DNA of 63,837 nucleotides, filler included, from Reclinomonas americana ATCC 50394 (Eukaryota): the NCBI GenBank assembly GCA_048213135.1. It is 11 parts of 11 records of this genome, joined end to end, with 100 filler letters (N's around TTAATTAATTAA, not from the genome) between each part and the next. Parts side by side here need not be neighbours in the genome. Positions count along the whole stretch, not along the records: positions 1 to 5,348 come from AFZH01020351.1; positions 5,449 to 10,583 come from AFZH01020352.1; positions 10,684 to 29,816 come from AFZH01020354.1; positions 29,917 to 34,621 come from AFZH01020355.1; positions 34,722 to 38,053 come from AFZH01020357.1; positions 38,154 to 43,202 come from AFZH01020358.1; positions 43,303 to 47,340 come from AFZH01020359.1; positions 47,441 to 54,762 come from AFZH01020361.1; 3 more parts are not named here. One strand, 5' to 3'. Below are positions 1 to 55,654 of this stretch, one piece after another. Position 1 is the stretch's first letter, and the number at the start of each line of letters is the position of its first letter. A program made the position numbers and the translations under genes. The notes beneath the pieces were generated by a model that saw only the letters and a list, made by a program, of their open reading frames with translations, was not told the origin of the DNA and did no database searches.

Positions 1-3000
1 CGACGTTTCTGCGCGCCACAGGCATGCCAGACGACGGTGTTTTGGCGACAGTGACGGCTCGCTTCAAGCGTCAGCTGGTGCTCAAGGAACGGTGTGACAT
101 GCACGTGTGTGTGTGTGTGTTTATCTTGATCGCGACGTGCACCTCACTGGCAAGCGCAGTGAAATCCGCCGTCTCAAGAAGGAGCTGCGGAGAAAACACG
201 GGGCGTTGGAGGATGCGACAGGCAACGCCGCCGATGTGCCACGCTGGCTGCGGCCTCCGTTGCGTCTCACGTGCAGTCGTTGTCGACATTAACTGCATCT
301 CATCTCCGGGTTGTGCAGTCCGCCGGCAGGCGCTGGACTGAAGCTGAGTCTGGGTGACTTGCGCGATCCCGTCATCACTGTGGACTCGGCGGCGTCCCCC
401 ATTACGGTCGGTTTTGTGAAGAGCACACGTTGGATAGCTGTCGCCCGCTCACCTCTCCGCTGGTCACACAGACGGATCCGTCAGTGTCTGTCGGGGATCT
501 CATCCGACAACACGAAGAATACGTGCGCTGCCTCAAGGACGAGTTTCACGCGTACCGAGACCACTTCCAGGAGGAGCTCCGAGGTTTGTTGATTCTGTGC
601 CATGGTGGGTGACAGTGACCACAACTGATAGCATGCCTCCACAGCCTTGTCGACTGCACTTATGGAGGAGGCCGACAATGGACGCCGAGTGCAAATGATT
701 GAGGTCGCAATTCAGCGATGGACTGGCGAGAACCCGCTGCACAAGTTGTGTTCTCGTCGCACAAATATCTCAGCCGTCTCTGCGTTCTCATTGCCTTTTT
801 CTTCGAGCAGGATCAAGAATCCCAAGGCCTCTCCGTCCCTGTTCAGCGCACCACATCCGCACGCTCATGGCCCCGATCAGCAGCGGCGCGCCGTATCCAC
901 ATCAGTGAGTCCACGGTCGGCCGCCTCTCGCCAGACGCATGTCGTGTGCTTTGGCTGCGGCACCTCGGTGCCGATTCCGGAGACGCACTTGCAGCCGCGT
1001 CCTGGACCTCGTCTGCTGCCCGCCGGCACTCTGCTTAGTCCAGATCAGCGGTTCCGCTCACAGAACAGTCGCGAGTCAGCAAGACAGAGGCGCCCGTCCT
1101 CTGCATTTGTATTACTGGGAGTTGCGTGGGCTATTGTGGAGAAGAAGAAGAAGAAGTCGGCGAGGGAATGAGAGGCAGGACCTGACATGTGTGTGTCTGC
1201 AGGCGGGATCGGGTTCCTGCACATCGCTGAGTGGCTCCGACATTCCACTTGATGTCGAGGACGATCGCAGTGTCATGAGCTCACCGGGTGTCGAAAGCCT
1301 GCCCAACTCGCCGTTTGGGGAACCCATGTCGGGGCGCAGTGCCCACTCTGGTGAAGACCACAACGCGACAGTGACAAGCGAGTTGTGGGTTGTGCCGAAT
1401 GCAGATGCTGCTGTTGGTGGAGTGAGTGACGGTGAAACGAGGTGCGCCACGTGTTACGTGCCTCTCCCGCAGTCCTCGACACACACTTACCTCCTTTCTC
1501 GTGTTGCACACACAGTGCCGGTAATCACTCGGACGATCCGTCGAGTACCCGTAACGGCAAGACTCCGCCTCGACGTGGTCGACGAGCGGCAGGTAAATCC
1601 ACTGGCTCCTCGCCCACCAAGGCGAAGAGACGGCGTCGCTCCAAGTCGCCGTCCAAGACCAGCAGCAAGAGTGGCAGTCGGTCACGGTCGACATCCCCAG
1701 GTCGTCGCAGCGACTCGGAGGCCGCCGATGGTCCCACGCGCATGCAGATCAGCAGTCGCGAGACCAGTCGCGATTCATCAGCGCGCAGTGCGAGCGACAA
1801 TGCCGCGTCCGGTCGGCAAACACGATCAACTGCTTCAAAGGGTTTGTGTCGCCCCCCCCCCCCCCGTCTCCCACTTTATTTTGTGCATGTATGTGTGTGC
1901 CTTTGCCTGCCTGGCTGCCTGCCTTTATCATGCCATGCACCGAAGCGGCCAGCCCTTTTTCTCCATTGTTTGTCTCGTTGTGCCTTATTTGTGCCCTTGC
2001 CGCCTGTCATTTCCCTCGCACTACAGCCGGCGGTGTGGACGTCAAGACGGCGGCAGAGTTGTTGTCGCTGCGCAAGGAAAACGAGGAGCTGCGTGACGAG
2101 GTGGTTGCGCTGAAGACGCAAGTGGACATGCTGTTGGCCGAGAAGGAGGATGAAGAGAGCGAGGGTCTGCCCATCCCCGTGTCTCTGGCGCCGGACCGTG
2201 AGCGATCGGTACTTGCGTGTGCACGCGTCTTCTTCTTGTAGGGTTTACCCACCATTTCTCTCCGTCACTCGACAGCCATCGGTGCCACGAGAGGTGGAAT
2301 CGGCGGGGGAGGATGACGACGATGGCGACGAGGACAGCGACGCACGACCGCCATCCGACTGCTCGCTCGATCAGTGGGGTTCGCCCACGTATGAACGTGC
2401 CGTGTCCATGCGGAAGGCCCGCCGGCGGGCGAGTCACAAGGAAATTGGTCCGGCACGCCGTGTTCGCGATCTGCGTGTCGATGTGGCCGGCCTCGACGCC
2501 GCTCGTACGAGCTACGCAGGCCTGTCCGAGGGTAGCACGCCGACCGCCACCGACGGCAACAACGATGACGACGCCGACGGCGGAAACAGTGAGGTCTCCG
2601 GCGTGGTCATTACCGAGTCGCCGATCCTGCGCGCCAACATCCGCCGGGTCACCATTTGCGATCCAACATCTTACGACGGCGCGTCTGCGAGCAGTCCCGC
2701 CATGTCATCCGAGGCCGGCAGGGACGAGGATCCGGCTGTGCGCGCGGCTCGTCGACGCGAACGCGCTCGCCAGGTATGTAGACATCGATGGTCTTCTATT
2801 TTCTCCTCCTCCACGCATCGACTCTGACGACACCACACATGAGCAGGCGGGATCGGCGTCAGCGGGCACCATGCTGCGCATCATGACGTGCAACGTGAAC
2901 ACGCAGACACCGCGTACGTGGATGTTTGTCGGTCGTTCGCACGCACCCTCCATGCTGCACCGCCCGCACAGTATCGGAACACAGACCGAAGATCTCACCC

Positions 3001-4984
3001 GGCGCGACTCGTCGGCGGGACCGTGGCTTCTGCAGCTCACCTCGGCGATGCGAGAGCAGAGTGACAACGACAGCTCGCCGGTGGGTCCGCAGCCTCGGCG
3101 CCTGTCACTGGTGCCGGCACGCTTTGTGCCGCTCGAACATCGCGGCTCCATGTCGAGCCTGGCGCCCACGCTGGGTTCTCAGAGCCCATCGGGTGTCGAC
3201 ACACCGCAGCACGGCGCCGCACGAGCTCAGCAGGGATCGCCAAATCCGCTGCAAGCGGCCAACGCGGAGCGCGCTCGCCCCTCGGGTCTCGTGTTTGACG
3301 GCATGCCGACCCGCCAGCCGCTGCACGCCTCACAGTTGGTGGCCAACGCAGCGCACAATGTTGCGAGTGGCCATGGGCGTGCGGCTGGGGGCAGAGAGGC
3401 GTCGTCGTCGCTCACCGGTCTGCTGACGGCGGTGACGATGGAGACTGGAGGCGAGACGCAGTCCATCACTCGAATGCGTCCTGCGCCATCCAAGGGGGGC
3501 GCGAGTGGCGACGTGGCTGCTGCTGTCGTTGCGCAGGCAGCAGGAGAGTTGCTGGGCAGTGCGGTTGACGGCAACGGGCACCTCGACATTGAGCTGGATG
3601 AGTTGCGCGAGCAGTTCCGCCAGGAGATCAATGTCGGCGCCGGTGATGCGGCCGGCAAGGGCAGTGGAGGTCGACCGTCCGCTTCCGCACCTGCGGGTGC
3701 CTCCGGCTTCCGGTCAAAGACTCCACCGCTGCGCAACCCCAAGGCCACTCGACAGAATGCGCCGTTGCCGCCACCGGTCGCTGTGCCGCCGGTGCCACCG
3801 CCATCTGCGGGGAACGAGGCGGTCGCGGTCGCAGCACCACTGTCGCGCAGCGCCGATTCGAGTCCGCGGCACAGCGGTCGTGATCGATCGCAGTTGTCGG
3901 CCAAGCGCGTGCCCAAGCCGGTGGCACAGCAGGTGTTCCCGCGACCACTGCCGGAGCTCGACGACGAAGGTGTGCATGACATGGCGGACGAACAGCATGC
4001 ACAAAACTTTATGCATGCGGCGGCGTCATCGACACTGCCACCGCTGCACACGTGGTCGCCACAGCAGAGTGCTGGTGGTGGCCTCGCGCCGGCACCGGCC
4101 ACCGGCTCGTCCCTGTCGTCCATGCCGCCGCCACATCAGAGCGCACACACGCGCAACACCCGAGTGGCGACGCGTCTGCTGCGGCCGACCAGCGCCCTCA
4201 TGATGGATCCGTCGCTGGAGATTGTGCCGCTGCGTGCGCCCTCACGCAGCCCCTCACCCACCCTGACGCGACCAGCGACCTCCGGTCCACTCGGTCGCCA
4301 CGGGGGAGGTCACGTGGAGCAGCACATATCGGATCGCGAGGTCACGCTGGCCACGGAGCAGCAGTTCACGTTGAGTGGCGGTGCCGTGCGCCCGCAGTCT
4401 CGCGAACGGCAGCAGCTGGCGGTGCATCTGCCGGACGTGACTTCGGTACGCCGCGCGGCAGCCATTAGCGCGTCAAGGTACGAGGGCTTGAAGAGGGGGA
4501 ATCTTTCTGAGAAGGGCAATCACTTATTGGTTTTATACCAGGCGTTCGAGTTCCGTGGTGATTGCCACCATGGAAACCGACAGTTCGGCCGGTGGTAGCA
4601 GTGGGAGAGGACAAGGAACAGCTGCCGCCGCAGCAGCGCCCACACGCTCACTCAAATCGGCGAGCGCTCTGCCGCGACGCGCCCATCCGCAATTGAAATC
4701 CAAATCGGGAAGGTACAAATTGTCATGCTGCAGCTGCGCATCGGCGGTACGGCGAATCATGCTAAACTTGGCGAGTGTGTGTGTGTGTGTCTTGTTGCAG
4801 CGCAAGTGGCGAGGTCGAAACGTCCTCCTCGTCAACAGCCGTGACCACACTGACGACGACCGCCATTGTCGCCGCCGCCCTTGCATCATCGCGTGCAAGT
4901 AATTATAATGCCCCACCTGCGCCACCACCCACGGCCAGCGCACGCGACCTCTCGTACTGGGACACCACAGAGAGCTTCTCATAA
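1..4984 (+). CDS. Multi-exon hypothetical protein, 5' partial; coiled-coil segments plus long Ser/Pro/Ala-rich disordered regions
   Basis: Frame is conserved through about 10 GT-AG introns (e.g. donors at 259, 745, 1121). There is a long exon at ~2848-4478 and a stop TAA ending at 4984. Confidence 0.7.
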
Positions 4985-54701: not shown

Positions 54702-55074
54702 GTGCGTGTACCCATGGCCACCTGTTGCTCTTGCCGTGCTGCACACATACTCACTGCATTGCNNNNNNNNNNNNNNNNNNNNNNNNNNNNNNNNNNNNNN
54801 NNNNNNTTAATTAATTAANNNNNNNNNNNNNNNNNNNNNNNNNNNNNNNNNNNNNNNNNNNNAGGAGGAGGAGGAGAAGAAGAAGAAGAAGAAGAACAGA
54901 AGAAGAAGAACAACAACAACAACAACAAGTAGATGAAGGGGAGGAGAAGAAGAAAGAGAAAAAGGAGGAGAAGGAGGCGGAGGAGGAGAACACCAAGAAG
55001 CAGAAGAAGTGAAGAGAAACACTGATCTGTGAACACACACAGACAACTCGACAGAGATCTCTCTACAAACGTAC

Positions 55075-55654
55075 CTCACAGCCCTCGCAGCTCGCAGCCG
55101 AGCAACCGCGGCAGTCAGCCACACCGCAGTCACAGTGGCACTAACACAAAGACACACACACACACACAGAGAAGAGCAGTGAGCGAGTGGGAGTGTATCA
55201 GTGCGCTCATGTGTTCTTACTCACCGTGTACGGCGAGGCGCACTCGCGATGAGTGCACGCTGAGAGCAATAGAGAGTGAGTGAGTGCGTTGTTGTGTGAG
55301 AGTGTGTGCGGAAAGAGTGCGTACCTTTGCAGCAATCGAGTGAGGCGCAACCCTGTGTGGGCGCGAAATGAGAGTGTGAGAGGAATATGGGAATGTGACG
55401 ACAAGATGGAGGTGGAACGAGAGAGAGTGAGAGAGACACACGCGCGTGCACACATGGAGAGAGTGGCGCGCAGTCAAAGCACACACAGAAGGCGCGGGCG
55501 GGAGTGTCGTGTCCATGCCTGATTGTCACACACACACACACGCAACAGAGCACTTGGCCACGTCGCACGAGCAGGCGGGGTCAGCGCAGGCGCAGTCGCA
55601 TTGGCTGCGGTGAGCGCATCCGGGGTGAGTGCAGGCGGCGGCCGCGGCGCTCAT
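55075..55654 (-). CDS. Cys-rich metallothionein-like protein, at least 4 exons (3' end may run into the gap)
   Basis: Exons 55654-55547, 55352-55325, 55259-55225 and 55140-55075 splice in frame to 79 aa with 20 Cys. Confidence 0.8.

Follow-up and report, generated by a model that had tools for sequence, protein, structure and literature searches.

A second, abundant class of 5′ splice sites offset by one base in nuclear DNA of Reclinomonas americana

The window analyzed here is a 63,837-nucleotide (nt) stretch of DNA from the eukaryote Reclinomonas americana ATCC 50394 (GenBank assembly GCA_048213135.1), composed of 11 parts joined end to end. It is gene-dense nuclear eukaryotic DNA of about 58% GC in which many very short introns split the genes. 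In addition to ordinary donors of the types AG/GUGCGU and AG/GUACGU (the slash marks the cut), the analysis confirmed A/GUUGCGU as a genuine second and abundant class of 5′ splice sites of GT-AG spliceosomal introns, which comprises about 20-27% of the introns modeled. Set in one register, AG/GUGCGU and A/GUUGCGU spell the same eight-letter word but for a single letter (G versus U).

A second donor class among predicted introns

Introns were predicted by a self-trained gene finder that combines frame-specific Markov coding scores with a learned acceptor matrix and allows GT..AG introns of 35-300 nt. Its donor-agnostic parse, in which GT was the sole donor information, predicted 198 introns. 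The trained parse, which used a two-class donor matrix, predicted 182 and serves for gene models only, being circular for donor statistics. Donor-class statistics are restricted to introns of 45-110 nt (139 in the donor-agnostic parse and 172 in the trained parse), and donor logos and class contrasts come from the donor-agnostic set. Across all modeled introns the length range is narrow, mostly 55-80 nt (for example, 12461-12531), and the acceptor consensus is RCAG: about 90% have C at -3, and the base at -4 is a purine.

GTTGCG leads the donor hexamers of the donor-agnostic parse, at 23 of 198 introns, followed by GTGCGT at 15; in the trained parse it accounts for 38 of 182 donors, a count that is circular. 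The window holds 103 copies of the hexamer, 55 on the + strand and 48 on the - strand. Within predicted gene spans, 22 of its 68 sense-strand occurrences serve as donors of 45-110 nt introns, as do 17 of 36 for GTTGCGT, 14 of 57 for GTGCGT, and 139 of 4220 for any GT. Donor usage of GTTGCG is about ten times the GT baseline and as high as that of GTGCGT, the best canonical hexamer, while the ten remaining GT hexamers of the same composition have 0 to 3 donor uses each.

A first-pass annotation of this DNA had listed 21 such donors (18 on +, 3 on -), put the total at about 30, and claimed that G precedes none of those listed. All 21 coordinates begin with GTTGCG, and in no case is the preceding base G. 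The donor-agnostic parse recovers 14 of them, the trained parse 19, and the union 20, with only 55546 (-) in neither. The estimate of about 30 fits the size of the class, which holds 28 of 139 donors in the donor-agnostic parse, 46 of 172 in the trained parse, and 7 or 8 of 23 in the gene checked by homology below. The annotation also named four related hexamers: GTTTCG is real and minor (3 to 6 donors), GTTGTG and GTTGAG are found once each, and GTTACG is never used.

The second class was selected as donors with T at +3, G at +6, and a base other than G at +5, so that G+6 is built into the selection. Its 28 members carry G at +4 (86%), C at +5 (89%), and T at +7 (71%), and the exon base at -1 is A in 14 (50%), T in 9 (32%), C in 5 (18%), and G in none (0%). 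The 94 ordinary donors, which lack T at +3, favor A at -2 (30 of 94, 32%), G at -1 (56 of 94, 60%), G at +3 (62%), C at +4 (43%), G at +5 (63%), and T at +6 (47%). The -1 base of the second class resembles the ordinary -2 base and not the ordinary -1 base. These columns, placed in a common register, support the earlier proposal of the usual donor moved by one base, with G+1 in the role of G-1. In addition, the ordinary +4 to +6 matrix fits better one base further on at 31 of 45 T+3 donors, compared with 405 of 781 unused GTT sites.

G at -1 and G at +6 are anticorrelated, in a test that the first-pass annotation had proposed. Twelve T+3 donors with G at +5 (GTTTGT, GTTCGT) behave as ordinary donors and have G at -1 in 8 cases, compared with 0 of 28 for the second class (p = 6e-6). 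Likewise, G precedes 0 of 23 GTTGCG donors but 73 of 145 non-T+3 donors (p = 1e-6). A check that is free of gene models agrees: G precedes 10 of all 103 GTTGCG occurrences and 40 of 108 GTGCGT occurrences (Fisher p = 3.6e-6). The base at +3 must be T, as GTAGCG, GTCGCG, and GTGGCG are used as donors at 0 of 3, 0 of 41, and 2 of 52 occurrences. The second class is also the more stringent one, with C in the equivalent column in 25 of 28 donors versus 40 of 94 ordinary donors.

Outside the donor, the two classes look alike. Median intron lengths are 68 and 68.5 nt, and both classes have RCAG acceptors and, some 20 nt before the 3′ end, CTRAY-like motifs. At acceptor position -4, ordinary introns have G in 59% and A in 30%, and the shifted class has A in 50% and G in 39%.

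Introners create many introns that share their ends, and the second class would on this account be a recently spread set of transposon-derived introns with GTTGCGT as the conserved end. A tandem GTTGCGTTGC in four donors is of the kind this predicts. However, there is no similarity beyond the first 7 bases, and all-against-all blastn returns microsatellite matches only. Pairs of GTTGCG introns share 0.37 internal 7-mers, compared with 0.59 for pairs of ordinary introns, and the common lengths, acceptors, and branch-like motifs argue in the same direction, which leaves this origin the least credible of those considered.

U12-type introns have a donor of A or G followed by TATCCTT and an TCCTTAAC-like branch site. 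They too form a second class with its own 5′ motif, but the donor motif differs, while the 3′ features here match those of the main class. This candidate was rejected, as GTATCC is absent from the 40 commonest donor hexamers (182 introns) and the 3′ signals are those of the main class.

Placement of the exon boundaries by homology

The exon at 13768-13923 matched one relative, P0001, a protein of 1091 amino acids (aa) with C2 and CEP76 peptidase-like domains and 75% identity over the exon. P0001 sits on contigs of at most 3482 nt and is therefore probably derived from a transcript. The surrounding locus, 10749-15760 (+), was split in two by the gene finder at about 14130-14165, and P0001 and its orthologues span both halves; judged from these alignments, the locus is one gene for a putative C2 plus CEP76-peptidase-like protein.

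P0001 was aligned to the locus with a spliced protein-to-genome aligner that charges GT and GC donors equally and uses no donor matrix, which gave 1035 columns at 48% identity. Of the eight GTTGCG introns listed there, seven (11230, 12057, 12461, 12899, 13924, 14508, and 14832) are placed by this alignment with ungapped junctions. At 13315, in a poorly aligned stretch, the alignment prefers a GT 12 bases downstream. Every frame-preserving donor and acceptor shift of up to 9 bases was then scanned. At the seven placed junctions all high-scoring alternatives leave the intron length unchanged, and none but the proposed junction is GT..AG.

Within this one gene, from which all the homology support comes, the comparison was extended to a panel of 21 proteins by adding to P0001 20 more distant orthologues, drawn from 150 further matches in a representative library; these mostly agree. 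Exact orthologue support for the eight junctions is given in Table 1 and is similar to that for ordinary introns of the same gene (19 of 21 at 13690, 7 of 21 at 12301).

The alternative to these boundaries is a modeling artifact, in which the true introns would be GC-AG introns beginning three bases later (GTT/GCGT), another GT close by would be the real donor, or GTTGCG would be a word of exonic or regulatory sequence. Boundaries three bases apart are indistinguishable by frame-based splicing, and orthologues favor the GC reading at 13315 (8 to 6) and tie with it at 12057 (7 to 7). GT nevertheless wins at the well-conserved junctions: it beats GTT/GC at six, by 19 to 1, 11 to 1, and 8 to 1 and, counted by donor usage, by 17 to 0, 11 to 0, and 11 to 0, and the P0001 alignment is ungapped over seven. 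All three intron phases are used about evenly (12, 14, 12), so GTT is not a codon. GTTGCGT is also biased to the gene strand (36 sense versus 10 antisense copies), and 31 of the 36 sense copies within gene spans are intron starts in the trained parse. An artifact is accordingly very improbable. GC-AG introns were rejected on the fit of the downstream junction, which is worse at six junctions and ambiguous at two. Introns that start with TT and keep the G in the exon were also rejected: their acceptors would then be GG, GC, or GT, which give no consistent signal.

A second gene model, for a serine carboxypeptidase on the - strand, bears on the donor at 29383 (-). The exon that ends at 29384 (-) aligns end to end with positions 119-147 of the Peptidase_S10 profile, and the junction joins ...GESYAG to HYVP..., where GESYAG is presumably the catalytic-serine motif of the carboxypeptidase family. 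Protein searches with the carboxypeptidase exon P0002 and with the exon 26247-26645 of a large gene returned no match. Further along the carboxypeptidase gene, the GTTGCGT intron at 28978 and a GTTTCGT intron at 28896 may flank a 6-nt exon, TTCCCT, at 28897-28902 (-); one intron of 150 nt would preserve the frame equally well.

Recognition of the two classes by U1

The leading explanation, which has about an even chance of being right, is that one U1 small nuclear RNA (snRNA) 5′ end reads both donor classes, the second in a +1-shifted register. The U1 5′ end that reads AG/GUGCGU and AG/GUACGU would bind A/GUUGCGU one base out of register. Intron G+1 would occupy the usual pairing place of exon G-1, with U+2 as the single mismatch; U+3 would substitute for U+2, GCGU at +4 to +7 for the bases at +3 to +6, and the exon base at -1 for that at -2. 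The cut would stay at the only GU, presumably fixed later by U6, U5, and Prp8, which would have to tolerate one extra nucleotide between this GU and the GU at +6 and +7 that probably pairs with U6. A single snRNA species could in this way serve both classes, with U1, and U6 after it, as the likely reader.

Several features of the second class would follow. The shared eight-letter word is to be expected if a single U1 5′ end recognizes the two classes and the position of the GU sets the cut. U alone would be accepted at +3 because it pairs with U1 A7, A would be favored at -1 because that base pairs with U1 U10, and the shifted register itself would account for the lack of preference for G at -1. 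The greater stringency may arise because one mismatch must be compensated. With a standard U1 5′ end assumed, the minimum-energy duplex given by RNAduplex for CCA/GUUGCGUGC is in the +1-shifted register, at -2.5 kcal/mol, similar to the -2.3 kcal/mol of an ordinary donor without G at -1.

Bulged pairing is one alternative to this shift; these two and a variant snRNA were the mechanisms offered by the first-pass annotation. G+1 and U+2 would pair normally in U1 and then U6, one U (+2 or +3) would bulge, and GCGU would pair as usual. A one-nucleotide bulge at +3 (or +2) has been validated for human 5′ splice sites, and it likewise places one extra nucleotide between GU and the conserved G (PMC4856993). 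UU offers two equivalent bulge positions, and U6 has to fit the extra base in any case. However, a bulge retains the C9 partner for the exon base at -1, so that G should be kept there as favored or neutral, whereas it is found in 0 of 28 donors (56 of 94 ordinary ones), and it gives no role to A at -1 (14 of 28). Any base could bulge, yet T alone is used at +3, with the other three bases nearly or wholly unused. Nor is this duplex the one picked by RNAduplex for the class consensus. A bulged register is thus improbable and ranks third, behind the shifted register and a variant U1.

A variant U1, which ranks second and is on balance unlikely, would be a second U1 or a non-standard U1 5′ end matched to GUUGCGU, so that each donor class would have its own RNA. 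Lineage-specific U1 5′ ends reportedly co-evolved with atypical donors in Entamoeba and Mastigamoeba, and Physarum is said to have standard plus modified U1 (bioRxiv 10.1101/2022.06.08.495308). G at U1 position 5 would explain C at +5 of the second class (25 of 28) as well as C at ordinary +4 (40 of 94). On the other side, a U1 with a single inserted base would still favor G at -1, which is absent; the classes share all columns but one, so that one RNA in two registers is simpler; and Thecamonas and Mamiellales are described as having standard U1 despite C at +4 (same source). The exon-side pattern and the T-specificity at +3 favor the shifted register over both a bulged U and an insertion-variant U1.

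The C preference is itself a prediction about U1: C at ordinary +4 and at shifted +5 would call for G at U1 position 5, the base that Mastigamoeba U1 is reported to have. For a hypothetical U1 of this kind (ACGUAC), the computed energies are -14.8 kcal/mol for ordinary and -8.4 kcal/mol for shifted donors. An Rfam scan of the window gave 0 matches at the gathering score to any family, U1, U6, and other snRNAs included; at E <= 1 it gave just microsatellite-driven microRNA matches and weak small nucleolar RNA matches. A long microsatellite tract at 42880-43210 yields spurious sub-threshold microRNA matches.

A number of points weigh against recognition of a second class in a shifted register. 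Both intron sets derive from a gene finder self-trained on a single 64-kb window, and the donor-agnostic set is noisy, with 59 of its 198 predicted introns outside 45-110 nt. Cleavage at N/GUU is supported by protein alignment together with the GT-AG rule, and two of the eight junctions examined (12057 and 13315) are undiscriminated by distant orthologues, conservation being poor there. The shifted duplex with standard U1 is weak, at the -2.5 kcal/mol given above. G at -1 in the second class (0 of 28) is below even G at ordinary -2 (20 of 94; p = 0.007), while T reaches 9 of 28; this total avoidance is unexplained by the model, because pairing with U10 would tolerate a G wobble and disfavor T. 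GUUGAGU pairs better with standard U1 (-6.9 kcal/mol) yet is rare, at 1 donor. Similarly, the preference for C opposite U1 position 5 is unexplained unless U1 differs, as A pairs better with standard U1.

Mammalian shifted donors are of the GUUAAGU type, and the motif here is GUUGCGU instead, with strict exclusion of G at -1. In human cells the +1-shifted register has been established by experiment (PMC4856993). The mammalian sites (Roca & Krainer 2009, as described in PMC4856993) resemble those described here in that they start with GU, have U at +3, and carry the remaining consensus one base 3′; at both, U1 would pair one position out of register and the cut would stay at the GU. In frequency they differ: the validated non-canonical registers of human sites add up to about 1.5% of 201,541, next to 0.9% for GC-AG and 0.36% for U12-type sites (same source), compared with 28 of 139 to 46 of 172 introns here.

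Donors that resemble one or the other class are known from several lineages. The Entamoeba donor is GUUUGU(U), read by U1 ACAAAC, and the Mastigamoeba donor is GUGCGC, read by U1 ACGUAC; these lineage-specific donors share T at +3 or C at +4 with those of R. americana (bioRxiv 10.1101/2022.06.08.495308). In those genomes, however, the donors form a single uniform class read in the normal register, whereas here two classes offset by one base coexist. The ordinary donors GTGCGT and GTACGT are similar to those of Mastigamoeba, Thecamonas, and the Mamiellales, and C at ordinary +4 is known from Ostreococcus and the Mamiellales (PMC2483917) and from Thecamonas and Mastigamoeba (bioRxiv 10.1101/2022.06.08.495308). 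The GTGCGTG donors of Ostreococcus and the Mamiellales share G+3, C+4, G+5, and T+6 with the ordinary donors here, as well as a GC-rich genome and short introns; the available part of PMC2483917 makes no mention of a GTT-shifted class.

In the literature searched on shifted and bulged registers, atypical donors, and GTGCGT, judged mainly by title and abstract, no organism with an abundant GTT-shifted class is described, and string matches to GTTGCG or GUUGCG in the literature are primers and unrelated sequences only. In humans the shifted register is a known rarity, and its use as a major class appears to be new in the literature searched.

About a quarter of introns may be routinely spliced through a non-canonical U1 register, with an absolute ban on G at -1 that would keep the two registers from competing, or alternatively two U1 species may be maintained for the two donor classes, although the balance tilts slightly against this. 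If true, R. americana would be the first organism with non-canonical 5′ splice-site recognition as a major mode. A genome in which between a fifth and a quarter of introns belong to the shifted class would hold hundreds to thousands of natural test cases, which could show how U1 register, hand-over to U6, and choice of the cleavage site are uncoupled, and why G is absent at -1. For annotation, a gene predictor with a single donor matrix will overlook or misplace roughly every fourth intron here. Of the 21 listed sites, the donor-agnostic parse failed to recover 7, and it set several boundaries wrongly.

Intron coordinates and neighboring features

Table 1. Introns of the GTTGCG class in the window. 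Listed, coordinate given in the first-pass annotation; new, added by this analysis. Both, donor-agnostic and trained parses. The orthologue columns give proteins that support exactly the junction shown and proteins that support the GTT/GC reading.
Coordinates	Strand	Donor	Source	Support	Orthologues, exact	Orthologues, GTT/GC	Remark
259..318	+	GTTGCGT	listed	motif; trained parse only
1121..1202	+	GTTGCGT	listed	motif; trained parse only
7307..7366	-	GTTGCGT	new	both			acceptor identical
8258..8321	-	GTTGCGT	new	trained parse only
11230..11313	+	GTTGCGT	listed	P0001 ungapped; sole GT..AG solution	11/19 spanning	1	CEP76-like gene
12057..12121	+	GTTGCGC	listed	P0001 alignment	7/20	7	poorly conserved stretch
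12461..12531	+	GTTGCGT	listed	rank 1/115 alternative junctions	19/21	1	best-supported
12899..12972	+	GTTGCGT	listed	P0001	14/21	0	same donor in 3 more
13315..13377	+	GTTGCGT	listed	trained parse; P0001 favors GT at 13327	6/21	8 (GC at 13318)	ambiguous boundary; 4 orthologues for 13327
13924..13985	+	GTTGCGA	listed	rank 1/114 junctions	11/21	0
14508..14579	+	GTTGCGT	listed	P0001	10/21	0
14832..14899	+	GTTGCGT	listed	P0001; rank 1/117 junctions	8/21	1
17254..17336	+	GTTGCGT	listed	donor-agnostic parse only
18775..18844	+	GTTGCGC	listed	both
20173..20242	+	GTTGCGT	listed	both
21820..21892	+	GTTGCGT	new	both
22383..22439	+	GTTGCGT	listed	both			tandem GTTGCGTTGC
22982..23042	+	GTTGCGT	listed	both
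23258..23315	+	GTTGCGT	listed	both
23508..23586	+	GTTGCGC	listed	both
23995..24060	+	GTTGCGT	new	trained parse only
24766..24828	+	GTTGCGT	listed	both
28903..28978	-	GTTGCGT	listed	donor in both, acceptors differ			serine carboxypeptidase gene; possible 6-nt exon next
29322..29383	-	GTTGCGT	listed	both			splits GESYAG/HYVP
31816..31886	+	GTTGCGT	new	both
31999..32061	+	GTTGCGC	new	both
32799..32870	+	GTTGCGT	new	both
33061..33127	+	GTTGCGT	new	trained parse only			tandem GTTGCGTTGC
33232..33303	+	GTTGCGT	new	trained parse only			tandem GTTGCGTTGC
33551..33627	+	GTTGCGC	new	trained parse only
34285..34344	+	GTTGCGT	new	both			tandem GTTGCGTTGC
36153..36227	-	GTTGCGT	new	both
37478..37547	-	GTTGCGC	new	trained parse only
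40229..40302	+	GTTGCGT	new	trained parse only			low-complexity coding region
40365..40430	+	GTTGCGT	new	trained parse only
45061..45119	-	GTTGCGT	new	trained parse only			P450-like gene
45571..45630	-	GTTGCGT	new	both			P450-like gene
51246..51319	-	GTTGCGT	new	trained parse only
55540..55546	-	GTTGCGT	listed	motif present; in neither parse			motif of candidate intron start
63382..63452	+	GTTGCGT	new	both

A GTTGCGT intron at 55546 (-) is plausible. A cysteine-rich open frame of 70 aa at 55547-55760 (-) (...CAHRSQCDCACADPACSCDVAKCS) ends at this motif, with short candidate exons after it and, about 194 nt further on, a CACAG acceptor.

Several other genes were modeled in the window. A gene for a tetratricopeptide repeat (TPR)-containing protein lies at 34779-38043 (-), one for a CNNM/DUF21 protein at 38248-40646 (+), and one for a pectate-lyase-like (PF12708) protein at 53769-54818 (+), whose protein-atlas neighbors include a GH55-named cluster. 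The gene at 44136-46640 (-), with about 15 introns, is one which we take to be cytochrome-P450-like from recognized motifs. The commonest 7-mers of the window are (GT)n and (CT)n runs. Between 5349 and 61673 there are twenty N runs of exactly 44 N each, in ten pairs spaced 12 bases apart; these are non-biological and were masked.

The tandem GTTGCGTTGC, a 10-mer, is present in the window at four predicted donors only, three of which lie in one gene, 31523-34374. The excess is modest, at 4 versus about 1 expected by a rough estimate. The tandem could be a slippage product or provide a back-up donor 5 nt downstream.

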